A stretch of DNA of 64,000 nucleotides from Candidatus Zixiibacteriota bacterium (GTDB taxonomy: Bacteria; Zixibacteria; MSB-5A5; GN15; JAAZOE01). Shown piece after piece: positions 41,207-63,857 of this stretch; the first letter of the stretch is position 1; each line of letters starts with the position of its first letter. The translations under genes were made by a program, and so were the position numbers. The notes under the pieces were generated by a model that had not been told where the DNA came from, made no database searches, and was given only the letters and a program-made list of their open reading frames with translations. The DNA lies in contig JBDREQ010000073.1 of NCBI GenBank assembly GCA_043819555.1, forward strand, positions 32,001-96,000. The letters run 5' to 3'.

Positions 41207-41228
41207 GATATGCAAGGAGATATTATAA

Positions 41229-42452: not shown

Positions 42453-42467
42453 ATGATTTAATGCTAA

Positions 42468-42634
42468 CCGTCAGTTTACAATTTCGCTTTTCGCGAAATC
42501 AAGAACTGACGGAACAGCCAATAGGGCAGCATCCCCGCTATGCTGCCATTAATTGAATTAAATTATCGCGCTATGCGCGATTGGCGGGATCTTTCTCGCT
42601 ACACTCGAAACCTTCAGCAGGGCTCCTGACCTAC
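42468..42634. repeat. Cluster of hairpins and REP-like elements between convergent operons
   Basis: CCGTCAGTT...AACTGACGG (42468-42512); ATAG-GGCAGCAT..ATGCTGCC-A (42521-42548); minus-strand GTAGGTCAGGAGCC...GATCCCGCCA (42582-42634). Confidence 0.65.
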
Positions 42635-42646
42635 TGTTAAAAAATT

Positions 42647-44065
42647 TCACATCTTCAAATTAAAACACACCACTTTGGGTTCGGTCATTTCCTGGAGGGA
42701 GAATTTTAATCCTTCGCGACCGAGGCCGGAATATTTCACGCCGCCGAACGGCATCGAATCCAAACGATAATCGGTCGAGTCGTTTATCATAACGCCGCCG
42801 CAATCAAGCTCATACGAAGCCTTAAAAGCGATATCAATATTATTTGTAAAAATCGCCGCCAGTAGTCCATAGGGGAGAGAATTGGCTTCTGCTATGGCTT
42901 TATCCAAATCATTGATATGATAAAAATTAACCGTCGGGCCGAAAACTTCTTCGCAGTGAATCGTGACGCCTTCAGGCAGGTTTTCCAAAACAGTCGGCTC
43001 GTACAATGCGCCGTTACGTTTTCCCCCGGTCAATAATGTTGTCCCTTTTTCAACCGCTTCATTGACCCATTTCTCAACCCTTATTGCTTCGGCTTCCGTT
43101 ATCATCGGACCCATGTCGGTTTCTTCCTTCATCTTATCGCCGATGATATATTTTTTCGTCTGTGCCACGAATTTATTTTTAAATTCATCATAAATATCAT
43201 CATGAATCAATAGCCTCTGGACACCAATGCAGTTTTGACCCGCCGCCCAGAATGAACCGGATACGCATGATTCAACCGCCAGATCAATATCGGCATCTTT
43301 CCAAACAATAACGGGCGAATTGGACCCGAGCTCCATTCCGATCTTCTTAATTCCGGCTTTGGCCGCGATCTGTTTCCCAGCCTCGACTCCGCCCGTGAAA
43401 GAAATCATCCGCACCCGTTCATCACTAACAAGGGCATCTCCAATCTTGGAACCATACCCGGTAATGACCTGAATCGCTTGTGGTGGTAATCCTGCTTCGA
43501 GCATTGCCTCGACAAGTTTAATCGCCGACAGCGGAGTGACCGTAGCAGGTTTTAATATGACAGAATTTCCGGCCGCGAACGCCGGGCCGATTTTATGAGC
43601 CACCAGATTCAACGGATCGTTGATCGGCGTAATAGCCAAAATAACACCGATTGGAAAACGATAATAATACCCCTTGCGATTTTCTCCTCCGGGAAATGAA
43701 TCGAACGGAATTGTTTCGCCCAATATACGCTTGGCCTCTTCAGCCGAGCAGGTAATAGTATTGACGCAGCGCGACGCCTCCTTCCGGGCTTCACGAATTG
43801 TCTTGGAACCTTCCCGGGCAATCGTCTCGGCGAATTCATCAAGCCTCTCAGAAATAATTTTCGCCGTCTTGAATAGAATTTGAGCCCGCTCATATACGGT
43901 CATTTTCTTCGTGATTTCAAATCCCGCGACTGCGGATTTGAGGGCCGTTTCAACGTCTTTTACCGTTCCGGCAGGAACGGTATCTATTATTGAATTATCG
44001 AACGGGTCGCTTACTTCAATTTTAGTCTCTCTATCGACCCATTCGCCGTTTAAAAGCATTTTCAT
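42647..44065 (-). CDS. NAD(P)-dependent aldehyde dehydrogenase
   Basis: ITPIN.PLNL, KPA, SFTGG, ELGSNSP, GQNC (catalytic Cys), EEVFGP, MPFGGVKYSG. Confidence 0.93.
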   Translation of the reverse strand: MKMLLNGEWVDRETKIEVSDPFDNSIIDTVPAGTVKDVETALKSAVAGFEITKKMTVYERAQILFKTAKIISERLDEFAETIAREGSKTIREARKEASRCVNTITCSAEEAKRILGETIPFDSFPGGENRKGYYYRFPIGVILAITPINDPLNLVAHKIGPAFAAGNSVILKPATVTPLSAIKLVEAMLEAGLPPQAIQVITGYGSKIGDALVSDERVRMISFTGGVEAGKQIAAKAGIKKIGMELGSNSPVIVWKDADIDLAVESCVSGSFWAAGQNCIGVQRLLIHDDIYDEFKNKFVAQTKKYIIGDKMKEETDMGPMITEAEAIRVEKWVNEAVEKGTTLLTGGKRNGALYEPTVLENLPEGVTIHCEEVFGPTVNFYHINDLDKAIAEANSLPYGLLAAIFTNNIDIAFKASYELDCGGVMINDSTDYRLDSMPFGGVKYSGLGREGLKFSLQEMTEPKVVCFNLKM

Positions 44066-45099
44066 TGTTTTCCCCCTGCGTAAATGATATCAACCAGCGC
44101 ACTGTAGCCGGTTTCGATTTTGCCCGCTCCAGGTCCTATGATAGTGATATCGCCCAAAGTATCGTTTGTTATCGTAATTGCATTTATAGCGCCCATAACC
44201 CCCGCCAGAGGATGCGATATGTCGATTTCCTGCGGTGCCACGCCGGCTCGGACTTCTCCGTTTTCTTTCCAAACGCGGCCAATTAATTTATACCTCTTGC
44301 CATTGCATTTGGCGCGGGCGATATCCTGAAGAGAAATACTCGTAATTCCTTCGCAGCTAAAATCCTGTGGTTTGGCTCTGGCTCCGAAAACAGCATTTGC
44401 CAAAATAGTGACTTTGGCCAAAGCATCCCATCCCAAGACATCGGCGTCAGGAACAGCTTCGGCATACCCAAGTTCCTGCGCCTTTTTGAGAGCTTCGCTA
44501 TAATCCATACCTACTTCCATTTGGGATAGGATATAGTTGGTTGTACCATTTAGAATGCCCTTGATTTCAGTGATTTCGCTTCCGATAAGAGTCTCTCGAA
44601 TCAGGTTAAGAAGGGGCGTACCGCTTATTACCGTTCCTTCATAGTAAAAACCGACGCCATTCTTTTTTGCCAACTGTTTCAATTCATGGAAATACAAAGC
44701 AACCGGTCCCTTATTCATAGTCGTCACATGCATGCCGTTTTCCAGGGCGGCCCGAATATGGGAAGTCGCGGGCTCGGCCGTTTTTATATCGGTGTAAGTA
44801 GCTTCGACCATCATATCCGCCTTGGCATGGTTTATCAATTGCAAGGCATCTCCCTCGAAATTATCGGGCAGTTCATTTAGTTTTTTCCCTTCTTTAATAG
44901 TATCCAGGATAAACTGCAAATCGATACCGTTCTCTTGATAAATACTCCCGTGCCGCATATCGGCTATGCCGACTACTGAAATTCCTTCAACCATAAGATT
45001 GGAAAGCATTTTAGATTTTTTAATAAGTAATTCTGCCAATCCCTGCCCCACGGTGCCAAACCCAATGATCAATAATCGCAAGTTGTCCTCCTTTTTCAC
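44062..45099 (-). CDS. hom: Homoserine dehydrogenase (short form, no ACT domain)
   Basis: IGFGTVG, NKGPVA, YEGTVISGTP, GILNGTTNYIL, GYAEA.P..DV.GWDALAK, GPGAG; stop overlaps the ALDH start (ATGA). Confidence 0.9.
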   Translation of the reverse strand: MKKEDNLRLLIIGFGTVGQGLAELLIKKSKMLSNLMVEGISVVGIADMRHGSIYQENGIDLQFILDTIKEGKKLNELPDNFEGDALQLINHAKADMMVEATYTDIKTAEPATSHIRAALENGMHVTTMNKGPVALYFHELKQLAKKNGVGFYYEGTVISGTPLLNLIRETLIGSEITEIKGILNGTTNYILSQMEVGMDYSEALKKAQELGYAEAVPDADVLGWDALAKVTILANAVFGARAKPQDFSCEGITSISLQDIARAKCNGKRYKLIGRVWKENGEVRAGVAPQEIDISHPLAGVMGAINAITITNDTLGDITIIGPGAGKIETGYSALVDIIYAGGKQ

Positions 45100-45296: not shown

Positions 45297-45325
45297 TTGC
45301 CTTTTTACTTCGCCTATTGTATAAT
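45297..45325 (+). promoter_or_regulatory. Sigma70-type promoter of the HMG-CoA synthase operon
   Basis: TTGCCT, 17 bp spacer, TATAAT. Confidence 0.65.
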
Positions 45326-45396: not shown

Positions 45397-46443
45397 ATGG
45401 TTGGAATAGTTGGTTATGGAGCGCATATACCCCGGCATCGCATCAAAGTAGAAGAAATAGCGAAGGTTTGGGGAGCCGATGCGCCCAGTTACAAGAAAGG
45501 GCTGATGCTTCGCGAGAAATCAGTGCCGACTCCCGATGTCGATACAATTACGCTTTCGGTTGGAGCCGCCAAAAATGCCCTAAAAAGAGCCATGATTAAC
45601 CCCAAAGACATTGGAGCTGTTTATGTTGGTTCCGAATCACATCCCTACGCGGTTAAGCCGTCAGGGACTGTAGTGGCTGAAGCGATTGGATGTGTTCCCG
45701 ATTGCCATTGCGCCGATTTTGAATTTGCCTGTAAAGCCGGTTCTGAAGCGATGTTTGTTACTTTGGGACTTGTAAAATCAGGATTTATAAAATACGGCCT
45801 GGCCATCGGAGGCGATACCTCGCAGGGAGCCCCTGGCGACGCCCTGGAGTATTCGGCCGCGGCCGGAGCGGCGGCGTTTATCATGGGTAAAAAAGATTTA
45901 ATTGCAGAATGTATCGATACTTATTCATTTATGACCGATACGCCCGATTTTTGGAGACGCGAATATGAATTTTATCCTCAGCACGGCGGACGTTTCACTG
46001 GTGAACCGGCATATTTTAGGACTGTTACCGGCGCCGCTAACGGGATATTAAAAAAAGTAAACATGAAACCTAAAGATTTCGATTATGTGATTTTTCACCA
46101 GCCAAACGGTAAATTTCCTCAGAGGATTGGTAAGAGACTCGGTTTCACTCCCAAACAAATAGAACCGGGCTGGCTGGCTCCAAGGCTGGGCAATACTTAT
46201 TCAGGGGCTTCGCCGATTGGCCTGACTTCAACTCTTGATATTTCCAAACCAGGCGACATGATTCTGATGATTTCTTATGGCTCTGGAGCCGGTTCTGATG
46301 CTTTCGTCTGGAAAGTCACCGACCGCATAAACGAAGTCCGCGATCTGGCCGTTCATACGACTACTTTGCTGGATCAAAATAAAACTTACGTCGATTACGG
46401 CACTTACGCCAAATACCGGCACAAAATCCTGAAGAATAATTAG
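45397..46443 (+). CDS. Hydroxymethylglutaryl-CoA synthase, archaeal type
   Basis: GSESHPYAVKP, EFACKAG (catalytic Cys), TDTPDFWRR, HGGRFTGEPAYF, FHQPNGKFP, GNTYSG, SYGSGAGSD. Confidence 0.9.
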   Translation: MVGIVGYGAHIPRHRIKVEEIAKVWGADAPSYKKGLMLREKSVPTPDVDTITLSVGAAKNALKRAMINPKDIGAVYVGSESHPYAVKPSGTVVAEAIGCVPDCHCADFEFACKAGSEAMFVTLGLVKSGFIKYGLAIGGDTSQGAPGDALEYSAAAGAAAFIMGKKDLIAECIDTYSFMTDTPDFWRREYEFYPQHGGRFTGEPAYFRTVTGAANGILKKVNMKPKDFDYVIFHQPNGKFPQRIGKRLGFTPKQIEPGWLAPRLGNTYSGASPIGLTSTLDISKPGDMILMISYGSGAGSDAFVWKVTDRINEVRDLAVHTTTLLDQNKTYVDYGTYAKYRHKILKNN

Positions 46444-46449
46444 GAGGAA

Positions 46450-47616
46450 ATGAAGATGAGAGATGTTGCTGTTGTCGGTATAGGTATCATGAAATGGGGT
46501 GAGTTGTGGGAAAAATCGTTCCGCGATATTTTCACTGAAGCCGCCCTGAATGCTATGGATGATGCCGGTATCGATAAAATAGATTCATTGATAGTGGGAT
46601 GTATGACAGGCGGGATGTTTGTCGGTCAGGAACATGTCGGCGCAATTATGGCCGATTACCTCGGCCAGCGCCACATTCCGGCGGCGCATGTGGAATCTGC
46701 CTGCGCCTCCGGCGGGCTTGCGTTTCGCCAGGCCATGATTGAAGTTGCCTCTGGAATTTCCGATATCGTGATGGCCGGCGGCGTTGAAAAAATGACTGAC
46801 ATTTCCGGCGACGGCGCGACTTATGCTCTGGCTGCGGCCGCCGATCAGGAATATGAAGTATTTCATGGCGTGACTTTTCCGGGTCTCTATGCCATGATGG
46901 CCCGCGTTTACATGAAAAAGTATAAAACGACCCGCCGCCAGCTTTCGGCGGTGCCTTATAAGGCGCATCAGAATGGATCCAAAAATCCTTATGCTCAGTA
47001 TCCATTTCCAATTAAGATTGAGGATGTGGAAAACGGCGTCAAAGTCGCCGACCCTTTGCATATTCTGGATTGCTCTCCGATAACCGATGGCGCCGCGGCT
47101 TGTATTTTAACGACGGTTGATATCGCCAAAAAAATGAAAAAACCGTATATACGGATTACCGGTTCGGCGATGGCGACCGATACGATTGCGCTGCATCAGC
47201 GAGAAAGCCTGACGACTCTTAAATCAACTGAGTTGGCCGGAAAGAAAGCGCTTGCGATGGCCGGTCGGAAAATCAGCGATATTGATTTGGTCGAAGTTCA
47301 TGATTGTTTTTCAATCGCGGAAATCATCGTCACCGAATCGCTCGGGTTTTTCAAACCGGGTCAGGGAGCCAATGCGGCCGCCTCTGGCGCCACAGCGCTG
47401 GATGGTAAAATTCCGGTTAATCCTTCAGGCGGGCTAAAATCAAAAGGTCATCCAGTCGGTGCGACCGGTATCGGTCAGGTTGTGGAGATTGTCAAGCAGC
47501 TTCGCGGCGAGGCCGAGAATGGCAGACAGATAAAGGGCAATCCCAAAATTGGGATGACTCAAAACATGGGCGGCTCCGGTGCTTCGGCGGTGGTGCATAT
47601 CCTGGAGGTGGCGTGA
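46450..47616 (+). CDS. Acetoacetyl-CoA thiolase, archaeal/SCP2-thiolase type
   Basis: [51 protein letters not shown]. Confidence 0.9.
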
Positions 47617-48011
47617 TGTTTCCATCAAGAATCTGGAGAGAAATGCCTCAGCGTTACCGCCTCGAGGCCTCAATTTGTAAAAAATGCGGAAAACGATTTT
47701 ATCCGCCGCGGCTGATTTGTGACAAATGCGGTTGCCGTAAATTCGAGCTGTATAATTTACCTGAAGAAGGAAAATTGCAAACATTTACGGTCATTCGTAC
47801 ACCGGCTTCGCAGTTTTCTGACCAGGCACCGTATGCGATAGGAATAGTTAAATTTGACGATGGTCTTCAAATGACGGCGCAGATCGTTGATTGCGATGTG
47901 GATAAACTGAAAATCGGCCAGAAAGTCAGGCTTGAATTCAGACGCATTCAAACTGACCAATCGCATGGCGTTTTGAGTTATTCCTATAAACTCGTACCTA
48001 AATGGTATTAG
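47613..48011 (+). CDS. DUF35 Zn-ribbon/OB-fold scaffold protein
   Basis: [44 protein letters not shown]; overlaps the thiolase stop. Confidence 0.9.
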
Positions 48012-48016
48012 ACAAT

Positions 48017-48044
48017 AAAAGGGCTTCCGCGTGAAGCCCTTTTC
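48017..48044 (+). terminator. Intrinsic terminator between DUF35 and the carboxyltransferase
   Basis: AAAAGGGCTTC-CGCGT-GAAGCCCTTTT. Confidence 0.75.
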
Positions 48045-48102
48045 TATATATTTCAGCAGGGGTGTAATACAAAGAAATGTGTTATTAATCTGATAGGAAA
48101 AT

Positions 48103-49710
48103 ATGTTTAAAATCGAATCAAAAATTAATACCAGTTCGTCAGCCTTTAAGGAAAACGACAAATTAAATCGAGAAGCCGCTCGTCTATACAAACAGCGAAT
48201 CGAAGAAATTAAATTGGGCGGCACGGATAAGGCCCGAAAGTTGCATACCGAGCGCGGCAAGATACTACCGCGCGAGCGGGTCGAAAAACTCCTCGATAAA
48301 AATACGCCATTTCTTGAATTGTCGCCTCTGGCCGCCTACGATATGTATAAGGGCAAAGCCCCCGGCGCGGGTGTAATAACCGGTATCGGAATTATCCAGG
48401 GTCGGGAAGTTATGATTGTCGCCAATGATGCGACGGTCAAGGGCGGAACTTATTTTCCGGAAACAATCAAGAAACATATTCGGGCTCAGGATATCGCGCT
48501 TGAAAATAACTTGCCGTGCGTCTACCTGGTCGACTCCGGGGGTATTTTTCTGCCCCAGCAGGCTGGTGTATTTGCCGATAAAGAACACTTTGGCCATATC
48601 TTTTTCAACCAGGCCAGACTATCGGCCAATCGCATTCCCCAGATTGCCGTTGTTATGGGCTCATGCACGGCCGGAGGAGCTTACGTTCCGGCCATGTCGG
48701 ACGAAACCGTTATTGTTCGCAAGCAGGGGACGATTTTTATAGGCGGGCCGCCGCTGGTGAAAGCAGCCACCGGCGAAGTCGTTTCTCCAGAGGAACTTGG
48801 TGGCGCCGATGTTCATTGCCGCGTTTCAGGAGTAGCCGATCATTATGCTCAGAATGATGCCCACGCGATCTCGATTACTCGCAACATTGTTGAAAATCTC
48901 GAAAGAACTCAGAAGTTTCCGCTTGATATATCACACCCGGAAGAACCGCACTATGATCCTGAAGAGTTATATGGCGTTGTGCCCAATGATCTCCGCCATC
49001 CGTATGATGTTCGTGAAGTCATAGCCCGCATTGTTGACGGTTCGCGGTTTCATGAATTCAAGGAATTATATGCCCCGACTCTCATAACCGGATTTACCCG
49101 CATTATGGGTTATCCGGTTGGTATTCTGGGAAATAATGGCGTTATCTTTGGCGAATCATCCCAAAAAGGCGCTCATTTTGTCGAGCTTTGCTGCGTTCGC
49201 AAAATCCCGCTGATATTCCTTCAAAATATCACCGGCTTTATCGTCGGCAAACAATATGAGAGCGGGGGCATCGCCCGCGATGGGGCCAAAATGGTTCATG
49301 CCGTCGCCAATGCACAAGTTCCCAAATTTACGGTTGTCATCGGCGCCTCGCATGGGGCCGGCAACTATGCCATGTGCGGACGGGGATACGAGCCTCGTCT
49401 GATGTGGATGTGGCCGATGGGTAAAATTTCGGTCATGGGAGGAGAGCAGGCCGCCGGGGTTTTAGCTGATGTCAAAGTGGCTCAGATGGCTCGCCAGGAT
49501 ATAACTCTCACCGATGAGGATATTGACGCCATCAAGCAGCCGATTCTTGACCAGTATGAACTCGAGTCATCGCCGTATTATGCCACCGCCCGGCTTTGGG
49601 ATGATGGTATCCTCGATATGACCGAAACCCGGCAGGCATTAGCGCTGGGCATCGCAATGTCGCTCAATCAACATATCCCCGATCATAAGTTCGGGGTCTT
49701 CAGGATGTAA
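48103..49710 (+). CDS. liuB: 3-methylcrotonyl-CoA carboxylase, carboxyltransferase (beta) subunit
   Basis: [57 protein letters not shown]-terminal FGVFRM. Confidence 0.9.
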
Positions 49711-49715
49711 AGTCG

Positions 49716-50504
49716 ATGCATAAAGAATATAAAACAGTCAAAGTCAAAATAGATGGTCCAGTCGCACGGGTAAGTTTCTGCCGCCCCGAAGTCCACAACG
49801 CTTTCAATGACGTTCTCATTTATGAGATGACCGATCTTTTTGAATCGCTCAAAAAAGTTAAAGGCTTACGAGTAGTAGTATTAACCGGCGAAGGAAAATC
49901 ATTTTGCGCCGGGGCAGATTTGAACTGGATGCGCCGCGTCAAAGATTATAGCTATGAGAAAAACCTCGAAGAATCTCTGGCTCTGGCTGATTTGTTTTAT
50001 CTGATTTATACCATGCCCTTGCCGGTCATCGGACGCATCAACGGAGCGGCCATTGGCGGAGGAACGGGATTTGTCTCGGTATGCGATATATCGGTCGCTG
50101 CCGAATCGGCCAGGTTTTCATTCTCCGAAGTAAAAATCGGAATCGTTCCGGCATGTATCGGGCCCTATGTTATCAAGAAGCTGGGTGAAGGAAAGGCTCG
50201 TGAATTTTTCATCTCGGGTGAGAGATTGACCGCCGCTGATGCATATCGCATTGGGTTGGTTAACCGATACTATCCCGACGACAAACTCGATGAAGAAATT
50301 GACAAATTGATAAATACGCTTCTGTCATCCGGGCCGAATGCCATCACGATGGCCAAAGAACTTGTTTCCAGTGTCCCCGGTATGAAACCCCACGAATTCA
50401 AATCGTATACGGCTGAGATGATTGCCAAATTGCGCTTGTCTGACGAGGGACAGGAAGGGATGGATGCCTTTTTAAATAAACGCAAACCGAACTGGGTAAA
50501 ATAA
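49716..50504 (+). CDS. liuC: Enoyl-CoA hydratase family, probable methylglutaconyl-CoA hydratase
   Basis: RPEVHNAFN, FCAGADLNWM, AIGGGTG, FSEVKIG..PA.IGPYV, EGQEGM.AFL.KRKP.W; lies between the MCC subunits. Confidence 0.85.
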   Translation: MHKEYKTVKVKIDGPVARVSFCRPEVHNAFNDVLIYEMTDLFESLKKVKGLRVVVLTGEGKSFCAGADLNWMRRVKDYSYEKNLEESLALADLFYLIYTMPLPVIGRINGAAIGGGTGFVSVCDISVAAESARFSFSEVKIGIVPACIGPYVIKKLGEGKAREFFISGERLTAADAYRIGLVNRYYPDDKLDEEIDKLINTLLSSGPNAITMAKELVSSVPGMKPHEFKSYTAEMIAKLRLSDEGQEGMDAFLNKRKPNWVK

Positions 50505-52027
50505 TGAAGATGCCAAAACTGTTTAATAAAGTTCTTGTCGCTAATCGGGGCGAGATTGCCGTGCGCGTGCTTCGCGCCTGCAAAACGCTCGATATAAAAA
50601 CCGTCGCGGTTTATTCCACTGCCGATAAATACGCCGTTCATACATTGATGGCCGACGAAGCTTACGAAATCGGCCCTCCTCCGCCTTTGGAATCGTATCT
50701 TAATATCGATAAAATTATCGAAGCCGCCAAATTATCCGGAGCCGACGCCATTCATCCCGGGTATGGTTTCCTCGCTGAAAATTCCAATTTTGCCCAAGCT
50801 TGCATTGATAATAAAATTGCATTTATTGGCCCTCCGCCGGATGCTATTTTACTTATGGGCAACAAAGTCGAATCACGAAAGAAAATGGCCGGGGCGGGAA
50901 TACCTTTGATCCCCGGCATGAAAGGCGCCGGTAAAAGTCTCGATGAATTCAATAAAGTCGCCGATGAAGCTGGGTATCCGGTCTTAATCAAAGCCGCTGC
51001 CGGCGGTGGAGGAAAGGGGATGCGGATTGTCAAAGATCCATCTGAACTTGAAACTGCCGTCGAGGGCGCCAAGCGCGAAGCCAAATCTGCATTCGGAGAT
51101 GATACCGTTTATCTCGAAAAATATATTGTTGATCCGCGCCACATCGAGTTTCAGGTTTTTGCTGATTCGTATGGCAATGCTGTTCATGTATTCGAGCGGG
51201 AATGCTCGATTCAGCGGCGGCACCAAAAGATTGTCGAAGAAACCCCGTCGGTTGCCGTCACGCCTGAGCTTCGCAAGAAGATGGGGGAGGCCGCTGTCGC
51301 CGTCACCAAAGCCTGCGGTTATGTCAATGCCGGGACAGTTGAATTCTTGCTCGATAAAAGCGGCAAGTTTTATTTTCTTGAAATGAACACCCGCATTCAG
51401 GTCGAGCATCCAGTCACCGAAGAAGTCGCCGGAGTCGATCTGGTCGCCGAACAGATTAAAGTTGCGTCGGGATTTCCGCTTTCGGATAAATTCAATAATC
51501 TGACGCAGCGGGGCCATTCTATCGAATGCCGTATCTATGCCGAAGATGCCGGGAATAATTTCATGCCCTCGATTGGAAAAATACTTTTGTATCGCGAACC
51601 GACCGGGCCGGGGGTGCGGGTTGATTCGGGCGTCCGGCAGGACAGCGAAATCGGAATCGACTACGACCCGATTATGGCCAAGCTGATTGTCTGGGGCGAA
51701 GACCGCGATATGGCTATTGCCCGAATGGTAAAGGCCCTGAAAGAATACAAGATATTAGGCATAAAGCATTCCATTAGATATCTTGCGGATATTGTTGCGC
51801 ACGCGATATATAAGTCCAGTGAGACTTATACCGATTTTATTGATAAGAACTTCGCCGACTGGTCAGACGACGGCGATAATTGTATCGAAATGGCTCTTGC
51901 AGCTGCGGCTGTGATTAACGCCAACGGCGGGCAAAAAGCTGGTTTTGGGAATAATCAGCAAAGAGCCAAAGCATACAACCCCTGGCTTACAATGGGACCC
52001 TGGCGTTTGGGAGAGAAGATAAAGTGA
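50504..52027 (+). CDS. Biotin carboxylase subunit (MCC alpha-like) lacking the biotinyl domain
   Basis: LVANRGEIA, HPGYGFLAEN, GGGGKGMR, RECSIQRRHQK, EMNTRIQVEH, YDPIMAK; ends NPW..GPWR with no MKM motif. Confidence 0.9.
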   Translation: MKMPKLFNKVLVANRGEIAVRVLRACKTLDIKTVAVYSTADKYAVHTLMADEAYEIGPPPPLESYLNIDKIIEAAKLSGADAIHPGYGFLAENSNFAQACIDNKIAFIGPPPDAILLMGNKVESRKKMAGAGIPLIPGMKGAGKSLDEFNKVADEAGYPVLIKAAAGGGGKGMRIVKDPSELETAVEGAKREAKSAFGDDTVYLEKYIVDPRHIEFQVFADSYGNAVHVFERECSIQRRHQKIVEETPSVAVTPELRKKMGEAAVAVTKACGYVNAGTVEFLLDKSGKFYFLEMNTRIQVEHPVTEEVAGVDLVAEQIKVASGFPLSDKFNNLTQRGHSIECRIYAEDAGNNFMPSIGKILLYREPTGPGVRVDSGVRQDSEIGIDYDPIMAKLIVWGEDRDMAIARMVKALKEYKILGIKHSIRYLADIVAHAIYKSSETYTDFIDKNFADWSDDGDNCIEMALAAAAVINANGGQKAGFGNNQQRAKAYNPWLTMGPWRLGEKIK

Positions 52028-52644
52028 GGCGGGCACCAAATCTATTAATTCTGTTGGCGATATCTATTCTTTATACGCCTGTATTTGGTTCAGATTCGCT
52101 GTTTAATTCCTTTAGAGAAAAACTATTGCCGGGATTCAACGAAGTACATTTAACAGATAAATCGAATGGAAAAATCGATTTCGTTAAGTCCCACCAAAAA
52201 AGCAAAGAGGGAATTTATATTGAAGATTATGGTGGTAAACTATATATACATATCTTGATACAGAAATATACTTGCGCGGATTCTATAGTCTGTGATTCAG
52301 TTGCAAAGTCGTTAATGAATTTATTTTTCTATCCCTTAGAATTAGATTATTTAAGGGAGAATGGCGGGCTACATATGAATAAATATGGTCCATTTATTGT
52401 GATAAAGGATGGTCTTGAAGTTTATGCCATTGATGCCAGGTGTGAAGATTGGTATGAAAGGGATTGGAATCGCTTTACTTACTATTTATTAAAAGATGCA
52501 CCGATTAAAGATAATCAAGAAGTGTTTATTGGCTATTGCGGGGATCGAATAGATATTTTGACGGAAGACTACTTCAAAGATTTTAGGAATGAAAAAATTA
52601 TAGATTTGGAAAGCGCGATTGAATTAAAGAAGAGTCATAATTGA
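52024..52644 (+). CDS. Hypothetical secreted protein (AT-rich orphan)
   Basis: Overlaps the biotin carboxylase stop (GTGA); signal peptide; no recognisable motif. Confidence 0.6.
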   Translation: MRRAPNLLILLAISILYTPVFGSDSLFNSFREKLLPGFNEVHLTDKSNGKIDFVKSHQKSKEGIYIEDYGGKLYIHILIQKYTCADSIVCDSVAKSLMNLFFYPLELDYLRENGGLHMNKYGPFIVIKDGLEVYAIDARCEDWYERDWNRFTYYLLKDAPIKDNQEVFIGYCGDRIDILTEDYFKDFRNEKIIDLESAIELKKSHN

Positions 52645-52733
52645 GTCATTCCCGAGAGTGATTCCGCTTGAGCGGGAGAATGAGTCGGGAATCCAGAAAT
52701 TTAATAGACTGGACTTCCCTTCGCGGGAGTGAC
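52645..52733. repeat. GTCATTCCCG...GGGAGTGAC palindromic element (dRS3/CGTC-like)
   Basis: GTCATTCCCGA...TCGGGAATCCAG...CTGGACTTCCC..GCGGGAGTGAC, starting immediately after the stop codon. Confidence 0.7.
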
Positions 52734-52828
52734 AGTGTTAGTAGAGTGGGAGTGGCAATAGGCTGGATAGATAGTTGGCATTAAGATTAGAAATAGTAAG
52801 TCTTAAACTGCTGTAGTTTCGAAAAATC

Positions 52829-52858
52829 AAAGGGAAGGAGCCTATCAGACTATTGCCA
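52829..52858 (+). repeat. Degenerate copy of the RAYT-associated REP
   Basis: AA-AGGGAAGGAGCCT-ATCAGACTATTGCCA versus consensus GTAGGGAAGGAGCCYNAAGGGCTCCTGCCA. Confidence 0.55.
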
Positions 52859-52884
52859 AAATTAGTTACAATAAAACGATAGTC

Positions 52885-52954
52885 AAAAACAGGCCTTCGC
52901 CTGTTCCCCTCTTGAGAGTGGTGGCTCCCGCGAAGCGGGAGACGGGGTGTGTTA
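52885..52954. repeat. Dispersed TTCCCCTCTTGAGA...GGGGTGTGTTA repeat, copy 2
   Basis: Matches 37455-37514. Confidence 0.75.
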
Positions 52955-53009
52955 AGAAAATTTAATTTGGGTAGCCCACAGCTTGCTGTGGGAAAAGTGG
53001 AGTGCAAAA

Positions 53010-53501
53010 GTGATTTACGAATTCATACATAACGGCGAAACCAAAACAGTCGAACTTAAAGACGGCAACAAAGCTGTTTTCGCCGATTCACAAAATATAA
53101 TCGATATTAATTATACTCCAGACGGACGGATATTCGTAAACAACGCCGGGGCGTCAAAAGAAATCTTTGCCGTCACATCCGGCGATAAAACCTTTGTCGA
53201 TATCGACGGGACGCTTTTCGAATTTGCGATACCATCCGAAGAAAACGGAATCGGGGGCGCCGGGGGAGGGCTTTCAGATCCTACCAAAGTATTCGCTCCA
53301 ATGCCTGGCAAAGTCGTCAAAGTGTTAGTCGAAGTCGGCGATGAGGTCAACGAAAAAGACCAGCTCATCATCGTCGAGGCTATGAAGATGGAGCATATCT
53401 GCATCGCCCGAGCCAAAGCCAAAGTTTTCGCCATTAATTATTCCACCGGCGACCAGGTTGACACCGAAACGCCATTGATTGAATTGGAATTGGTGGAGTA
53501 A
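53010..53501 (+). CDS. Biotin carboxyl carrier subunit (BT-like plus biotinyl domain)
   Basis: Likely GTG at 53010 after GGAG; APMPGKVVKV.V..GD, EAMKME. Confidence 0.9.
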   Translation: MIYEFIHNGETKTVELKDGNKAVFADSQNIIDINYTPDGRIFVNNAGASKEIFAVTSGDKTFVDIDGTLFEFAIPSEENGIGGAGGGLSDPTKVFAPMPGKVVKVLVEVGDEVNEKDQLIIVEAMKMEHICIARAKAKVFAINYSTGDQVDTETPLIELELVE

Positions 53502-53508
53502 TATCTTT

Positions 53509-53586
53509 GTAGGGAAGGAGCCCAAAGGGCTCCTGCCAATTGGTGCGATGATTATTGTAGGGAAGGAGCCTGAAGGGCTCCTGCCA
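53509..53586 (+). repeat. Two GTAG REP hairpins 5' of RAYT
   Basis: GTAGGGAAGGAGCCCAAAGGGCTCCTGCCA (53509-53538) and GTAGGGAAGGAGCCTGAAGGGCTCCTGCCA (53557-53586). Confidence 0.92.
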
Positions 53587-53591
53587 TTTTA

Positions 53592-54089
53592 ATGTCAAAA
53601 CTCAAACGATACTCATCATTATCAAAAATATATTTCATAACAAACGTCACTTACAATCGAGCACCGATATTAATAGATTCATTTTCGATATTATGGGAGG
53701 CGTTCACCCGCACAAATCAAAAATATGATTTTGATTTGATAGCATGGAGCATCTTACCGGATCATTTTCATGTTTTAATAGATTCAAAAGAGGCGAATAT
53801 TTCAAAAATCATGCAATCAATTAAAATGAGTTTCGGCGAAATGTACCGACGCCGGATGAGTTTATCATCGGGCCAAGTGTGGCAGAGACGATTTTGGGAT
53901 CACATAATTAGAAATCAGGAAGATTTTAATAGACATTTGGATTATATCCATTATAATCCTGTTAAACATGGTTATATTGATGCGCCGTTAACGTGGGAAT
54001 ATTCCTCGATTCAGAAATATAAATCATATTATCCGCCGGATTGGGGAGTGTTCGAAGATTTACAGTTCGAAGATAATTTTGGAGAATAA
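53592..54089 (+). mobile_element. rayT: REP-associated tyrosine transposase (RAYT/TnpA-REP, HUH Y1 family)
   Basis: YFITNVTYNR, ILPDHFH (HUH), VWQRRFWDHIIRN..DF..HLDYIHYNPVKHG, WEYSS; flanked by inverted REPs; no tnpB nearby. Confidence 0.92.
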
Positions 54090-58886: not shown

Positions 58887-60077
58887 ATGGGATATACAAG
58901 CGAAGCGTATATAGTGTCCGCCTGCCGCAGTGCGATCGGGACATTTTTAGGCGGTTTGTCTTCATTTTCAGCTACTCAATTGGGAGCTTTGGCAATTAAG
59001 GAAGCGGTTAACCGGGCCGAAATAGATCCCAATAAAGTAGATGAAGTGATTATGGGGCAGGTCGTTCAAGCTGGAGTTGGGCAGGCTCCCGCGAGACAGG
59101 CGGCTATCCACGCCGGAATTACACCCAAAGCCGGCGCACTGACTATTAATAAAGTCTGCGGGTCAGGACTAAAGGCGGTCATGCTGGCGGCTCAGGCAAT
59201 TCGTCTGGGCGACGCTAATTGCATTATTACCGGAGGGATGGAGTCAATGTCGGGAAGTCCTTATGTTCTTCACGGCGCCAAAGGCGGTTTGAAGTTCGGT
59301 GATAAAAAACTTCAGGACTCAATGGTACTTGATGGACTATGGTGTTCTTTCCAGAACTGGCACATGGGGAACGCCGCCGAATTGACCGCCGAGACTTCAA
59401 GTATCAGTCGAGAAGAACAGGATGAATATGCTTTTAATTCGCACAAGAAGGCTCTCGCCGCTCAAGGTGCAGGAAAATTCGATGCAGAGATTTTTCCAAT
59501 TGAGATTCCTCAGAGAAAAGGTGATCCGGTTATTTTCAAAAAGGATGAGTGCCCTCGTGCCAATATTTCGATAGAAGGTCTGGCGAAATTAAAGCCGGCT
59601 TTCCAAAAGGACGGTACGGTTACGGCAGGAAACGCGCCAGGACTCAATGATGGCAGTTCTGCGGTTGTGGTTGTATCTGAGAGCTATTTGAAAGAACACA
59701 AGCTGACACCGATGGCCAGGATTATCGATTATGGTACAGCTGGTGTCGAACCCAAAATGATATTTTACGCCCCGATTCACGCCGTTAACGATCTCTGCGC
59801 CAAAATGGGTGTGGATGTTAATCATTTTGATCTTATTGAGGCCAATGAAGCCTTTTCAGTTCAATGTCTTGCCGATGGGAAAAAAATCGGCTGGGATTGG
59901 GATAAGGTAAATGTTAATGGTGGTGCCGTGGCTTTGGGCCATCCCATTGGCGCTAGCGGATCCCGAGTATTGACAACGTTGTTATATGCTCTTAAGGATC
60001 ACGGCGGTAAAAAAGGTTTGGCGACTCTCTGTCTCGGCGGTGGTAATGCAGTGGCAATGGCAATTGAAATGATGTAA
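58887..60077 (+). CDS. atoB: Acetyl-CoA C-acetyltransferase (classical thiolase)
   Basis: NKVCGSGLKA, GGMESMS, TAGNA, NEAF, GHPIGASG, CLGGG. Confidence 0.92.
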   Translation: MGYTSEAYIVSACRSAIGTFLGGLSSFSATQLGALAIKEAVNRAEIDPNKVDEVIMGQVVQAGVGQAPARQAAIHAGITPKAGALTINKVCGSGLKAVMLAAQAIRLGDANCIITGGMESMSGSPYVLHGAKGGLKFGDKKLQDSMVLDGLWCSFQNWHMGNAAELTAETSSISREEQDEYAFNSHKKALAAQGAGKFDAEIFPIEIPQRKGDPVIFKKDECPRANISIEGLAKLKPAFQKDGTVTAGNAPGLNDGSSAVVVVSESYLKEHKLTPMARIIDYGTAGVEPKMIFYAPIHAVNDLCAKMGVDVNHFDLIEANEAFSVQCLADGKKIGWDWDKVNVNGGAVALGHPIGASGSRVLTTLLYALKDHGGKKGLATLCLGGGNAVAMAIEMM

Positions 60078-60102
60078 ATGATATTTCGGGAGGATATATA
60101 TA

Positions 60103-60963
60103 ATGACTGTTGATGATATTAAACAAATAACGGTAATCGGTGGTGGTACGATGGGCAACGGAATTTGCCACCATCTGGCCCAGTGCGGATATAATGTAAA
60201 CCTGGTTGATACGACCCAGACCTTTATCGATAGAGCCATGGCAACGATTACCAAGAATATGGATCGCCAGGTCAAGAAAGAAAAAATTACGGAAGATGAT
60301 AAGAACGCGGCTCTGGGAAGAATTAATCCGACGACTGATTTGAATGTCGCCCAGAATTCACAACTTATCATCGAGGCGATCTTTGAAGACCTTGAAGTCA
60401 AACTTAATTTATTCAAAGAACTTGATTCGATTTGCTCTGACGATGCGATTCTGGCATCAAATACTTCATCAATGCCGATTACCCAATTGGCCGGTGTGAC
60501 TAAACGTGCCGAAAAGGTCATCGGGATGCATTTCATGAATCCAGTTCCCATGATGAAGTTAATCGAGTTGATACGCGGCATTGCCACCAGCGATGAAACG
60601 TTCAATTTGATTAAGGAATTATCTGAAAAAATAAATAAAGTTCCGGTCGAGGTTCAGGATTATCCGGGCTTCGTCGCCAATCGAATCCTTTTACCGATGA
60701 TTAATGAAGCCGCATACGTACTCATGGAAGGCGTCGCAACGGCGGAAGGAATCGATACTGTTATGAAACTTGGGATGGCTCATCCAATGGGACCGTTGAC
60801 CCTGGCTGATTTTATCGGCCTTGATGTTTGCCTGGCTATATTGGAGGTTTTACATAATGGATTGGGTGATCCCAAATATCGCCCATGTCCTTTACTTAGA
60901 AAAATGGTTCAGGCCGGATATCTGGGACGAAAGACCGGTCGCGGATTTTATAACTACGAGTAA
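60103..60963 (+). CDS. hbd: 3-hydroxybutyryl-CoA dehydrogenase
   Basis: [45 protein letters not shown]. Confidence 0.93.
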
Positions 60964-60975
60964 GGAGTCCTTTGA

Positions 60976-62115
60976 ATGGATTTTAATCTCACCGAAGATG
61001 ATCTGATGATCAAGGAAGCGGCGGCTGAATTTGCGGCCAAACGCATTTATCCGAACGCTGAAAAATGGGATGAGGAAGGCAAAGTACCTCAGGAAGTTTT
61101 AGACGAACTGGCCGAATTGGGTTATTTCGGAATGATGTTGCCGGAAGAATATGGCGGTCTGGAGCTTCCATCGGTAACTTTTAACCTGGCCATGGAAGAG
61201 TTGGCAGCTGCATGCGCCGGTTTGACAATCATGGTATCGGTTCACAATTCGCTTTGTTGTGAAGCGGTTTATCGTTTCGGTTCCGATGAATTGAAAAAGA
61301 AATATTTGCCACAGATGGCGGCCGGCTCAATTGGCTCATATTGTCTGACTGAGCCTGATGCCGGTACCGATGCCGCTTCGATAAAAACATCTGCAGTTAA
61401 AAAGGGCGATAAATATATAATTAACGGCACCAAGACGTTTGTAACAAGCGGTGGATTGGCCGGTTTTTATATAGTTTTCGCGGTTACCAATCCGGAAAAA
61501 GGCTCTAAGGGAATATCCTGTTTTATTATTCCCAAAGGTACGCCCGGCGTAGGTCTTGGCGCTCCGGAAAAGAAGATGGGTATCAAAGTATCCGATACTC
61601 GTGAAATATCTTTTACGGATGTCGAAATTGATGCTGCCAATATGATAGGCGAAGAAGGCGCCGGATTCAAAACCGCAGTCATTCTTCTCAATAACGGCCG
61701 GATTGGCGTATCATTCCAGGCCCTTGGCATCGCACGCGCCGCTTATGAAGAGGCTCTCAAATACTCCAAAGAGAGAAAGCAATTTGGCCAGCCGATATGT
61801 AATTTTCAGGCGATTCAATTTAAACTGGCTGAAATGGCGACTAAGATTGATGCGGCCAAATTACTTGCCTTGAGGGCAGCTTCCATGAAAGATAATGGTC
61901 AGTTTATCGCTACCGAAGCGGCTATGTCAAAACTGGTTTGTTCGCAGACGGCGAATTGGGTTGCCAATGAAGCAGTTCAAATTCACGGTGGATATGGCTA
62001 TATGAAGGAATATCCGGTTGAGCGGTATTTTCGCGACGCTCGAGTTACTGAGATTTATGAAGGCACAAGCGAAGCTCAAAAAATAGTTATATCGCGCCAG
62101 TTACTTAAGGATTAA
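60976..62115 (+). CDS. Acyl-CoA dehydrogenase (butyryl/short-chain type)
   Basis: CLTEPDAGTD, INGTKTF, EKKMG, ERKQFG, QIHGGYGY, RDARVTEIYEGT. Confidence 0.92.
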   Translation: MDFNLTEDDLMIKEAAAEFAAKRIYPNAEKWDEEGKVPQEVLDELAELGYFGMMLPEEYGGLELPSVTFNLAMEELAAACAGLTIMVSVHNSLCCEAVYRFGSDELKKKYLPQMAAGSIGSYCLTEPDAGTDAASIKTSAVKKGDKYIINGTKTFVTSGGLAGFYIVFAVTNPEKGSKGISCFIIPKGTPGVGLGAPEKKMGIKVSDTREISFTDVEIDAANMIGEEGAGFKTAVILLNNGRIGVSFQALGIARAAYEEALKYSKERKQFGQPICNFQAIQFKLAEMATKIDAAKLLALRAASMKDNGQFIATEAAMSKLVCSQTANWVANEAVQIHGGYGYMKEYPVERYFRDARVTEIYEGTSEAQKIVISRQLLKD

Positions 62116-62117
62116 AT

Positions 62118-63269
62118 GTGTTATTAGATAAAAAACATCTTGAATTTAGAGAACGAATCAGGGCATTTTCACTGGAAAAGATAGCTCCCCATGCGGCCGA
62201 AATCGATGAAGAACAAAAATTCCGCATTGAAAGCCTTAAGGACCTATCGTCCGAGGGGCTTATGGGAATGGTGGTGGCCGATGAATACGGCGGTTCTTTA
62301 GTTGATACTGTGTCATATTCCATCGCGGTGGAAGAATTGTCGCGAGTTTGCGGTTCGACTGGAATTACAATAGCCGCTCATAATAGTCTTGGTTGTTTCC
62401 CAATTCATAAATTTGGCTCCGAGGAGCAAAAGAAGAAATATCTGCCACGAGGTACCGAGGGTGGTGAATTATTAGCCTTTGGTCTGACCGAACCCGAAGC
62501 AGGATCTGACGCCGGAGCCACGAGGACTACTTCAGTTAAAAACGAAGAGGGTTGGATAGTAAACGGTACTAAGTGCTTTATAACTTCGGCATCACATGCT
62601 TTTGCTTCAGTAATAACCGCTCGAACCTCGGATGACCCCGGAGTAAAGGGCATCTCCTCATTCATTCTTGAAAAAGAATGGAATGGATATGAAATTGGCA
62701 AAAAGGAAAATAAGCTGGGATTGAGAGGATCAGATACGGCCTTTATGCATTTTACAGATGTGAATGTGCCTCTCGAAAATCAGCTTGGCGAATTGGGTGA
62801 TGGTTTCAGGCAGTTTATGATTACGCTTGACGGCGGTAGAATATCTATCGGCGCTATGGCATTAGGATTGGCCCAGGGCGCATATGATTGCGCCGTTAAA
62901 TATGCAGCCGAAAAAACCATAAATGGAAAACCGATCGGGACAACTCAGGCGATTCAATGGAAACTGGCTGACATGGCAACTGAAATTGAAGCGGCGCGTT
63001 ACATGGTGTATGGGTCGTCAATGATGAAGGATGCCGGTATAGGCTTTTCAAAAGAATCGGCAATGGCCAAACTCTATGCTTCGGAAGTCGGACGGTGGGC
63101 TGCCGAGCAGGCTTTGGATATTTTAGGCGAAGTCGGAATTATAACCGGTAAGTATCCTGCCGAACGAATACTGCGGGATGTCAAACTTTGTGAAATCGGC
63201 GAGGGCACTTCGGAGATTCAGCGAATCGTTATCGCTCGTGATGTTTTAAAATCTGTTATGCCTAAATAA
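62118..63269 (+). CDS. Acyl-CoA dehydrogenase (short/branched-chain type)
   Basis: FGLTEPEAGSD, KLGLRGSDT, TLDGGRI, RDVKLCEIGEGTSE. Confidence 0.9.
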   Translation: MLLDKKHLEFRERIRAFSLEKIAPHAAEIDEEQKFRIESLKDLSSEGLMGMVVADEYGGSLVDTVSYSIAVEELSRVCGSTGITIAAHNSLGCFPIHKFGSEEQKKKYLPRGTEGGELLAFGLTEPEAGSDAGATRTTSVKNEEGWIVNGTKCFITSASHAFASVITARTSDDPGVKGISSFILEKEWNGYEIGKKENKLGLRGSDTAFMHFTDVNVPLENQLGELGDGFRQFMITLDGGRISIGAMALGLAQGAYDCAVKYAAEKTINGKPIGTTQAIQWKLADMATEIEAARYMVYGSSMMKDAGIGFSKESAMAKLYASEVGRWAAEQALDILGEVGIITGKYPAERILRDVKLCEIGEGTSEIQRIVIARDVLKSVMPK

Positions 63270-63284
63270 TCTGGAGGATAGATT

Positions 63285-63857
63285 TTGAAAACGCATGATG
63301 CTGTATACTATAATCACTACGTTGGCGAAATGGCCTTTGGGCGGCAGCTAATATATATGCTGACATTCAATGTCCTGTTAATTGCTTCATCATATATTCA
63401 ACTCCCTCTACCGTTTTCACCAGTTCCGGTAACGGCACAGACTGCGGCCGTATTAGCTTGTGGTCTGTTCCTTGGTCCGCTTAGAGGAACTTTTACGGTT
63501 ATAGCCTATCTACTGGAAGGCTCGATGGGCTTACCGGTCTATGCGGGTGGCTCAGCCGGAATCGCCAAATTAATCGGCCCAACCGGAGGATATTTGATGG
63601 GATTCGCCGCGGCCTCGTTTGCTGTCGGCTGGATGTCCGAGAGAATTCAGTCAATAAGTTATTATAAACTCCTGGCGGTTTTGACTATCGGGACAATTGT
63701 TATTTTTATCCCCGGCGTATATATCGTATCGCTTTACGCGCCCGAAGGACAAGCTTTGATAATGGGGCTTTATCCATTTATCCCCGGAGCAATCGTCAAG
63801 ATTTTATTATTGGCCTCGGCGTTGGCAGCTTATAGAAGAATAAGAAAATCGCTGTAG
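63285..63857 (+). CDS. bioY: Biotin transporter S component
   Basis: PFSPVPVTAQT, YLLEGSMGLPVYAGG, GPTGGYLMGF, LYPFIPG..VK. Confidence 0.92.
   Translation: MKTHDAVYYNHYVGEMAFGRQLIYMLTFNVLLIASSYIQLPLPFSPVPVTAQTAAVLACGLFLGPLRGTFTVIAYLLEGSMGLPVYAGGSAGIAKLIGPTGGYLMGFAAASFAVGWMSERIQSISYYKLLAVLTIGTIVIFIPGVYIVSLYAPEGQALIMGLYPFIPGAIVKILLLASALAAYRRIRKSL

Follow-up and report, generated by a model that had tools for sequence, protein, structure and literature searches.

Gene content of the locus

The window (the whole 64,000-nucleotide stretch of Candidatus Zixiibacteriota DNA that was analysed) carries a trio of genes for an HMG-CoA synthase (HMGCS), a thiolase and a DUF35 protein, followed by liu-type genes of leucine breakdown (Table 1). 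These genes had been named by the first-pass annotation, and all lie on the forward strand where it had placed them, with its motifs EFACKAG (Cys112), FHQPNGKFP (His234) and HDCF (284) present and the stand-alone DUF35 gene coupled to the adjoining thiolase gene by a 4-nt overlap. What had gone unnoted is a 206-aa open reading frame (ORF) and a repeat-rich gap of 338 nt, which separate the biotin carboxylase gene from that of the biotin carboxyl carrier protein (BCCP) and are both missing in a genome of the same genus. The ORF, for which a family match is absent, is likely to be a recent insertion, since that genome does not have it.

Table 1. Features of the locus, numbered from the first nucleotide of the window
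Feature	Coordinates	Strand	Remarks
Archaeal-type HMG-CoA synthase (HMGCS)	45397..46443	+	tetrad E80-C112-H234-N266 intact
SCP2/archaeal-type acetoacetyl-CoA thiolase	46450..47616	+	CxS (85), HDCF (284), GHP (333)
DUF35 scaffold (zinc ribbon + OB fold)	47613..48011	+	two CxxC; overlaps thiolase stop
Carboxyltransferase, methylcrotonyl-CoA carboxylase (MCC) clade, LiuB-like	48103..49710	+	
Crotonase, probable 3-methylglutaconyl-CoA hydratase, LiuC-like	49716..50504	+	by context
ATP-dependent biotin carboxylase, LiuD N-terminal part	50504..52027	+	
206-aa ORF, no known family	52024..52644	+	likely recent insertion
Intergenic stretch with REP-like repeats	52645..53009	.	repeats recur elsewhere in genome
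Biotin carboxyl carrier protein (BCCP)	52983..53501	+	probable start GTG 53010
Terminator-like hairpin between trio and liu genes	48017..48043	+	
Sigma-70-like promoter match 5′ of HMGCS	45297..45325	+	10/12, consensus match only
Classical thiolase, 3-hydroxybutyryl-CoA dehydrogenase, two acyl-CoA dehydrogenases (ACADs), BioY	58887..63857	+	

Judged by its sequences, the trio is an archaeal-type, motif-intact HMG-CoA synthase/thiolase/DUF35 set. The synthase scores 535.6 bits against TIGR00748 (cut-off 353.35) and 537.5 against NF003274 (cut-off 244), and the comparison with PhlABC that had been suggested places it on the archaeal side, at 460.7 bits to PDB 6esq versus 233.7 to PhlA. The thiolase passes NF004720 (526; cut-off 420) and reaches 516 on NF053570, under the cut-off of 600. 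The E-C-H-N tetrad, as defined in section 10 of PMC12960953, is kept in all 109 locus synthases examined. In a FastTree tree of 141 synthase rows, selected for their similarity to the query (4 partial representatives dropped), tetrad-less sequences branch apart and only one row bears an archaeal name; no cultured carrier is named among the best 120 matches of the homologue search.

The carboxyltransferase matches solved MCC beta chains at 727-732 bits, geranyl-CoA carboxylase at 451 and the usual PCC chains at no more than 273, and its top PDB match, 9tps (751 bits), is labelled propionyl-CoA carboxylase; with the biotin carboxylase and BCCP it forms an MCC set in the cluster, whose substrate is predicted from sequence. 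A crotonase gene does follow, as had been noted, but it scores under every NCBIfam cut-off shown, and its probable identity as the 3-methylglutaconyl-CoA hydratase derives from its context. The ACAD at 62118-63269 has an IGEGT loop, presumably linked to branched substrates, but its best PDB matches are short-chain ACADs, and neither ACAD of the 58887-63857 run, which trails the liu genes in many relatives, is identified by best match as an isovaleryl-CoA dehydrogenase.

The trio and its alternatives in relatives

Conserved synteny, which the first-pass annotation had proposed to check, is found: among 56 loci with at least 5 kb of downstream sequence, 44 have a carboxyltransferase or hydratase gene, in varied gene orders and with two types of carboxyltransferase. 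The adjacency of trio and liu genes is therefore not chance, and the proposed coupling of the trio to LiuBCD through HMG-CoA holds at the level of gene linkage. The thiolase and DUF35 genes are kept beside the synthase in all 56 long loci; the trio lies apart from liu genes in 12 of them and in one Acidobacteriota clade. The only unannotated genes that accompany the module from locus to locus are AtuA and a BCCP. The caution that a terminator divides the two halves stands locally (z -3.66 for 48005-48105), but the gap between DUF35 and carboxyltransferase genes is only 3-30 nt in 10 of the 49 loci measured; hairpins recur between the trio and liu genes in most genomes of the same family and are missing where the gap is short. 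Rfam gives no match within 43000-64000.

At genome level the trio appears as one of three alternatives that accompany the same carboxylase. We sampled 161 genomes of the phylum, related and so not independent, of which 145 are carboxylase-positive and 129 module-bearing. At least one of trio, HMG-CoA lyase and AtuA is present in every one of the 145 (123 with a close trio, 14 with AtuA only, 7 with a liu-type lyase and 1 with a trio cut by a contig end), while the carboxylase is missing from all 10 phylum genomes that have none of the three. Of the 14 AtuA-only genomes, 13 have the AtuA gene immediately before that of the carboxyltransferase. The exclusion is not strict: trio and AtuA occur together in 27 phylum genomes, and one (G120) has both trio and lyase. 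A lower-scoring lyase-family gene is found in 15 further module genomes; we set these genes aside because 17 of 18 viewed loci lie beside a family III CoA transferase. In a second phylum, the 69 carboxylase-positive genomes include 16 with a close trio, 35 with a lyase of at least 300 bits (a line picked after the scores were seen) and none with both; 6 of the 16 module genomes have lyase-family matches of 252-289 bits.

The AtuA protein that occupies the trio's slot in relatives has a model matching the citramalate lyase 9evf (E 1.3e-21, TM 0.56/0.71); its matches to the PDB by sequence and profile are weak (E 0.017 and 0.026), the fold search alone being clear. AtuA-like ThnQS have been reported as C-C lyases, on results described as unpublished in the relevant passage of PMC12016498, and AtuA was tentatively named a CoA:acetate lyase, with acetoacetyl-CoA and acetate as proposed products, in a passage of PMC4847356; such passages on AtuA show no HMG-CoA activity for any member. 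Our literature search found no paper on the citramalate lyase CmlA. AtuA proteins of this clade gain HMG-CoA as a candidate substrate. The AtuA structure contains ADP, and AtuA may therefore be something other than a simple one-way lyase.

Outlets for HMG-CoA and the direction of the trio

The absence of liuE/hmgL from the window, noted in the first pass, is borne out and extends further: in this genome (97.13% complete, so that 3% may be missing) we found no HMG-CoA lyase (HMGL-like family), HMG-CoA reductase, AtuA, CitE/CitF, Na-pump decarboxylase beta subunit, LeuA or IlvD, and no class I CoA transferase, SCOT and AibAB (PF01144) included. An AibA-like query had no match in the genome, and a search for AibC gave Zn-dehydrogenase matches at 23-32% only, none beside the module. 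Present are all 7 genes of the MEP pathway, one GHMP kinase (read as IspE), IlvE, E1/E2, ETF, Pta and AckA, as well as FabH and four POR-family enzymes. The same absences are common to 76 phylum genomes.

Since no known consumer of HMG-CoA was found and two lyase families take the same role in relatives, our comparative data favour a reverse reaction, and on balance we think that the trio probably acts as the last step of leucine/isovalerate breakdown, HMG-CoA + 2 CoA -> 3 acetyl-CoA. Leucine would pass through IlvE, a 2-oxoacid dehydrogenase or ferredoxin oxidoreductase, and an ACAD with ETF to 3-methylcrotonyl-CoA, which the ATP-driven carboxylase and the hydratase would push to HMG-CoA. Cys112 of the synthase would then take the free carboxylate of HMG-CoA and cleave it to acetyl-enzyme and acetoacetyl-CoA; at a shared CoA site the thiolase could draw off the acetoacetyl-CoA, and the roughly -26 kJ/mol of that step would cover the first half, which is uphill by about +21. 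As neither acetoacetate nor acetate would be released, one thioester more would be kept than with a lyase, worth about one ATP via Pta/AckA and so repaying the carboxylase.

HMG-CoA synthases are physiologically known in the forward direction, and the reverse reaction would run near equilibrium: with four concentration sets that we selected, it comes to between -5.3 and +9.0 kJ/mol, and it would therefore stall or flip at high acetyl-CoA/CoA. The formation of HMG-CoA from three acetyl-CoA is estimated at +4.7 kJ/mol, that is about -5 in reverse, in the available text of 10.1101/2020.11.20.391870, and the archaeal complex makes HMG-CoA in vitro, according to the available sections of PMC12960953.

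Of the other readings, a forward run to branched primers has some appeal but is unlikely: HMG-CoA made from three acetyl-CoA would pass to methylglutaconyl-CoA, be decarboxylated by a reversed biotin carboxylase complex and be reduced to isovaleryl-CoA for iso-fatty acids (or, by reductive carboxylation, for leucine). The complex is known to work forward, near-equilibrium energetics permit it, FabH and the four POR-family enzymes are present with no LeuA found, and Aib-like operons make use of a divergent trio. Against this, the divergent trio, where it plausibly runs forward, comes with an AibA-like subunit, a TetR and a Zn-dehydrogenase of its own; no AibAB-type protein or Na-pump beta subunit was found in the genome, so that diversion of the myxobacterial type, one of the first-pass proposals, loses its decarboxylase; relatives have two lyase families in the same role; and IlvD is also missing, by which branched amino acids would be imported anyway and give isovaleryl-CoA directly. 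A somewhat less likely reading again is reversal with no energy gain, the acetyl-enzyme being hydrolysed to leave acetoacetyl-CoA and acetate. This would mirror the product pair proposed for AtuA and be more downhill than full reversal, and work by Theisen in 2004 reportedly found such a back-reaction of the Staphylococcus synthase; however, it would need the same uphill thioester formation only to waste it, and would leave the constant presence of thiolase and DUF35 beside the synthase unexplained, with a classical thiolase nearby.

There is a slim chance that the trio runs forward and that HMG-CoA or methylglutaconyl-CoA from both halves goes to an unknown product, or meets an unrecognised lyase or reductase. 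Searches see known families only, part of the genome may be missing, and a divergent 449-aa reductase-like family occurs in some relatives; but nothing in this genome matches that family, no candidate gene other than AtuA and a BCCP travels with the module, and so many phylum genomes share the absences. The hub of the first-pass annotation, which would supply mevalonate and isoprenoids from leucine as well as from acetyl-CoA, could hold for those module-bearing phylum genomes that encode HMG-CoA reductase, 22 out of 129; at the loci viewed, the enzyme is a fusion with a GHMP kinase, and most have an IDI-2-like gene next to it. The hub is nevertheless very improbable here: no reductase was found in this genome, its single GHMP kinase is read as IspE, its MEP set is full, 107 of the 129 are without reductase, and 5 of 37 in the second phylum have it. 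That annotation was right about the intact archaeal-type trio and the missing lyase, and had not considered a reverse reaction replacing the lyase. Chance adjacency of two halves split by a terminator, to which the hairpin and the lineages with a separate trio might point, is hardly credible and largely refuted already by linkage in several orders with two carboxyltransferase types, by the short gaps and by the genome-level complementarity.

The prevailing view of HMG-CoA synthase is of a biosynthetic enzyme that works one way, and finding its gene is taken to indicate the mevalonate pathway. In this case the trio more likely marks amino-acid catabolism, as 129 of the 161 sampled phylum genomes carry it and only 22 of these have the reductase. 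Reversal of the trio, if true, would bear on how the cost of carboxylation is met in isovalerate oxidation and on sediment peptide degraders, and would give a textbook pathway a new ending with one more ATP per leucine. Whether many uncultured bacterial phyla end leucine/isovalerate breakdown by a reverse synthase, in a thioester-conserving thiolysis of HMG-CoA that is one of three interchangeable endings (besides the classical and the AtuA-family lyase) and whose extra ATP allows branched-chain acids to be used where energy yields are low, seems to us an even call. In our literature search, mostly without subscription papers, the trio-liu combination was not in any title or abstract start.

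Comparison with known systems

For each of the three genes the complex of Methanothermococcus thermolithotrophicus (PDB 6esq, 6et9) ranks first or second among PDB matches, and its E-C-H-N, CxS, HDxF and GHx motifs are intact here as well, in a predicted complex. The archaeal complex feeds HMG-CoA reductase, whereas here the reductase was not found, a complete MEP pathway is present and the trio is linked to the liu carboxylase. With the Liu pathway (Pseudomonas liuABCDE) the cluster shares the MCC-clade carboxyltransferase, biotin carboxylase, BCCP, crotonase, nearby ACADs and BioY, but LiuE/HmgL and SCOT were not found and the trio heads the cluster; the isovalerate cluster of Desulfococcus multivorans, as described in the available part of PMC5109826, has Mcc and HmgL.

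The AIB pathway of Myxococcus xanthus (MvaS, LiuC, AibA/B, AibC and AibR in the available part of PMC5389471) likewise connects branched C5 acyl-CoAs with an HMG-CoA synthase by way of a LiuC-type hydratase, but here there is no AibAB, an ATP-dependent carboxylase stands instead, and the synthase is archaeal-type and not MvaS-type. Two genomes (G212 and G296) have a separate divergent trio inside an Aib-like operon. As to the AtuA family lyases (CmlA, PDB 9erq/9evf; ThnQS; Pseudomonas AtuA), the slot AtuA of relatives shares the CmlA fold at 16% identity, while this genome has none.

Bacterial HMGS/ACAT/DUF35 loci are numerous: the available sections of PMC12960953 report 1,030 mined loci, 1,001 of them without a secondary-metabolite partner, and sections 10 and 12 do not mention liu linkage. 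The PhlABC/MucABC Friedel-Crafts acylases and PfACAT/HMGS-DUF35 treated there are likewise three-gene loci of this kind, but, according to those sections, the characterised members have lost the tetrad and make no HMG-CoA, whereas in the trio described here the tetrad and HDxF are kept.

The archaeal-type trio and its liu neighbours

The HMG-CoA synthase, thiolase and DUF35 genes lie where the first-pass annotation had placed them, and the synthase is of archaeal type as claimed there: it scores 535.6 bits on the archaeal family profile TIGR00748 (cut-off 353), and its closest PDB match is the Methanothermococcus complex (460.7 bits; PhlA, 233.7). The thiolase and DUF35 proteins match 6esq far more strongly than PhlC and PhlB. 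The E-C-H-N tetrad, required for forming HMG-CoA according to an excerpt of PMC12960953, is present. By all sequence tests run, not by pathway context, the trio groups within the archaeal family.

On sequence comparison the carboxyltransferase sides with MCC beta chains of solved structure (727-732 bits), not with geranyl-CoA carboxylase (451) or the usual propionyl-CoA carboxylases (at most 273); its top single PDB chain, 9tps, bears a propionyl-CoA carboxylase label, and a 32% identical paralogue adjoins methylmalonyl-CoA mutase on a different contig. The annotated methylglutaconyl-CoA hydratase is indeed a crotonase gene, its hydratase role being assigned from gene context alone. Between biotin carboxylase and BCCP lies a 206-aa ORF absent from the first-pass annotation and missing in a same-genus genome; RAYT (REP-associated tyrosine transposase) genes break up the cluster at L015, L016, L019 and L067.

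Features and coordinates (L, compared loci; G, genomes)
Feature	Location	Strand	Remarks
Threonine-dehydrogenase-like, glycine C-acetyltransferase-like, aldehyde dehydrogenase, homoserine dehydrogenase genes	window 40259-45099		just 5' of module; read as further amino-acid catabolism ending at acetyl-CoA
HMG-CoA synthase	window 45397-46443	+	tetrad E80, C112, H234, N266
Thiolase	window 46450-47616	+	retains CxS, HDCF, GHP
DUF35	window 47613-48011	+	
Hairpin	window 48017-48043		terminator-like
GC(A/G)GGGG-like motif	window 48059-48067; L226-L233		3' of hairpin in the majority of same-family genomes; may be a promoter or regulator site of the liu half
Carboxyltransferase	window 48103-49710	+	
Crotonase	window 49716-50504	+	
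Biotin carboxylase	window 50504-52027	+	
Orphan 206-aa ORF, REP-like repeats, REP-associated tyrosine transposase	window 52024-54089		transposase 53592-54089
BCCP	window 52983-53501	+	
AtuA, ~600 aa	L124-L137, L008, L010, L020, L232, L233		directly 5' of MCC-type carboxyltransferase
Aib-like operon (G212, G296)	L203:6446-10813; L204:3704-11485		TetR, synthase, thiolase, DUF35, AibA-like, Zn-dehydrogenase
Second SCP2-type thiolase/DUF35 pair	L152 (G000:C63:128001-148000)		amid crotonases, Zn-dehydrogenase, POR-family set; resembles anaerobic ring-cleavage genes
Stand-alone 449-aa proteins	L150:4295-5641; L151:4859-6205		weak HMG-CoA reductase match

From 592 loci the best 80 were compared, and in 56 of these the downstream sequence extends for at least 5 kb; thiolase and DUF35 are present in every one of the 56, and a carboxyltransferase or hydratase in 44. 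Gene order is not fixed (L037, L051, L055, L073, L074), and the labels, from many phyla, are the depositors' own. At eight loci (L051, L054, L056, L074, L076, L081, L187, L189) the trio accompanies a different, 578-aa carboxyltransferase, which gives equal scores against glutaconyl-CoA decarboxylase and MCC; the biotin carboxylase alongside is short, and the BCCP is a distinct one. The terminator said to separate the two halves recurs in the family as a hairpin 3' of DUF35, yet the DUF35-carboxyltransferase gap is at most 30 nt in 10 of 49 loci measured; the halves therefore share a single operon in certain lineages, and in the window they probably make up two units.

Outlets of HMG-CoA in the source genome

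Relatives that carry a name, at 80-87% identity, are mostly Zixibacteria, and we place the window in that phylum. The source genome (97.13% complete, 79 contigs) yielded no HMG-CoA reductase, HMGL-like domain (hence no LeuA either), AtuA, class I CoA transferase (covering SCOT and AibAB), Na-pump decarboxylase beta or IlvD, nor, with E. coli queries, CitE or CitF. Six-frame searches with profiles of 54 lyases, 9 reductases and 21 AtuA proteins reached a best E of only 0.18, and a control profile recovered the synthase. As in the window, no lyase was found in the rest of the genome. The cluster works like Liu but departs from it at the lyase, and departs from AIB also. The genome encodes IlvE (50%), a fused 2-oxoacid dehydrogenase E1 plus E2, ETF, Pta, AckA, FabH, four POR-family enzymes and a heme-copper oxidase. 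It has dxs, dxr, ispD, ispF, ispG and ispH, and a single GHMP kinase whose N-terminal motif we take as IspE-like. With MEP genes and no reductase, isoprenoids come from MEP, and HMG-CoA is without a known exit; the isoprenoid hub first proposed is thus very improbable.

Distribution of trio, lyase and AtuA

The following counts carry no test statistic; related genomes are non-independent. Of 161 genomes of the phylum, 133 have the synthase (129 close, 4 divergent), 145 the carboxyltransferase, 41 AtuA and 22 a reductase. The reductase of these 22 genomes is, at the loci viewed (L114-L123), a GHMP kinase fusion (~770 aa), mostly adjoining an IDI-2-like gene; five genomes with the fusion also have the 449-aa protein. 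Lyase-family matches exceed the cut-off in 25: eight (355-407 bits) lie in liu clusters, and the rest (268-287 bits) were set aside because they adjoin a family III CoA transferase at 17 of 18 viewed loci. Such a pair, a 307-aa HMGL-like protein and a family III CoA transferase, recurs at L092-L109, at times behind an isopropylmalate-dehydrogenase-like gene.

The 145 carboxyltransferase genomes divide into trio only (76), trio with reductase (20), trio with AtuA (27), AtuA only (14), liu lyase (7) and G023, its trio truncated by a contig end; all ten genomes without trio, lyase and AtuA also lack the carboxyltransferase. Four of the seven liu-lyase genomes have a divergent trio, away from liu genes at both viewed loci. 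At L143 (G120) a trio stands tail to tail with a full liuBCD-lyase operon. AtuA is directly 5' of the carboxyltransferase in 13 of 14 AtuA-only genomes, and we infer AtuA gain, overlap and trio loss, a pattern of non-orthologous displacement.

In a second phylum (that of G164, record label Aminicenantes; 201 genomes), 69 carboxylase-positive genomes were counted, leaving out one unpublished genome: 16 have the close trio, 35 a lyase of at least 300 bits and none both, the remainder having AtuA only (12), none (5) or a divergent synthase (1). Six of the 16 have lower-scoring lyase-family matches. The close trio occurs in 37 genomes (high-scoring lyase in two, reductase in five), 21 of them below the carboxylase threshold; in three of these the 578-aa type adjoins the trio, and all five that were tested carry, elsewhere, a 44-45% homologue together with a hydratase. 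Of the 80 locus genomes, 50 were screened for both enzymes: a high-scoring lyase occurred in one and a strong reductase in seven.

Should the trio, the lyase and AtuA share one function, it would be to cleave HMG-CoA. The AtuA of this slot is a candidate third type of HMG-CoA lyase; the predicted structure of one such AtuA (pLDDT 80.7) clearly matches a single PDB entry, citramalate lyase 9evf with ADP and pyruvate bound (E 1.3e-21). Parts of the literature identify AtuA tentatively as hydroxy-isohexenylglutaryl-CoA:acetate lyase (PMC4847356) and have AtuA-like ThnQS cleaving a tertiary hydroxyacyl-CoA (PMC12016498, citing unpublished results; also PMC13689101).

Direction of the trio

We lean, at slightly better than even, towards the trio running in reverse to three acetyl-CoA. 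An excerpt of the eQuilibrator-based study (10.1101/2020.11.20.391870) gives +26 kJ/mol for the thiolase condensation and +4.7 kJ/mol for making HMG-CoA from three acetyl-CoA. At standard state the reverse is about -5 kJ/mol; four illustrative concentration sets give values from -5 to +9 kJ/mol. Reversal would be feasible given free CoA and HMG-CoA raised by the ATP-driven carboxylase. One bacterial HMG-CoA synthase reportedly shows a back-reaction in vitro. Reversal gives three acetyl-CoA per HMG-CoA, an acetate lyase two acetyl-CoA and acetate, and the lyase acetyl-CoA and acetoacetate, whose reactivation costs one thioester; the missing SCOT fits a route free of acetoacetate release.

Being near equilibrium, the complex may work in both directions, which would permit forward synthesis of isovaleryl-CoA; the source genome, however, lacks AibAB and Na-pump decarboxylase beta, and we consider this unlikely. 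Reversal with acetate lost seems a little less probable still, and an HMG-CoA outlet of another kind slightly less so again. Our full-text literature search, in which subscription papers are under-represented, found no description of the reverse trio/liu combination.

The divergent archaeal-type trio (50-52%) of G212 and G296 is accompanied by TetR and an AibA-like subunit (best PDB match 5mzw, AibA), with Zn-dehydrogenase in G296; its thiolase motifs are HDAF and CxA, and it splits from the liu-linked set in the tree. This operon is probably a forward isovaleryl-CoA route outside myxobacteria. Cleavage by the liu-linked trio is supported by this separate branching together with the divergent trio's gene make-up, the same as that described, in an excerpt of PMC5389471, for the forward AIB operon.
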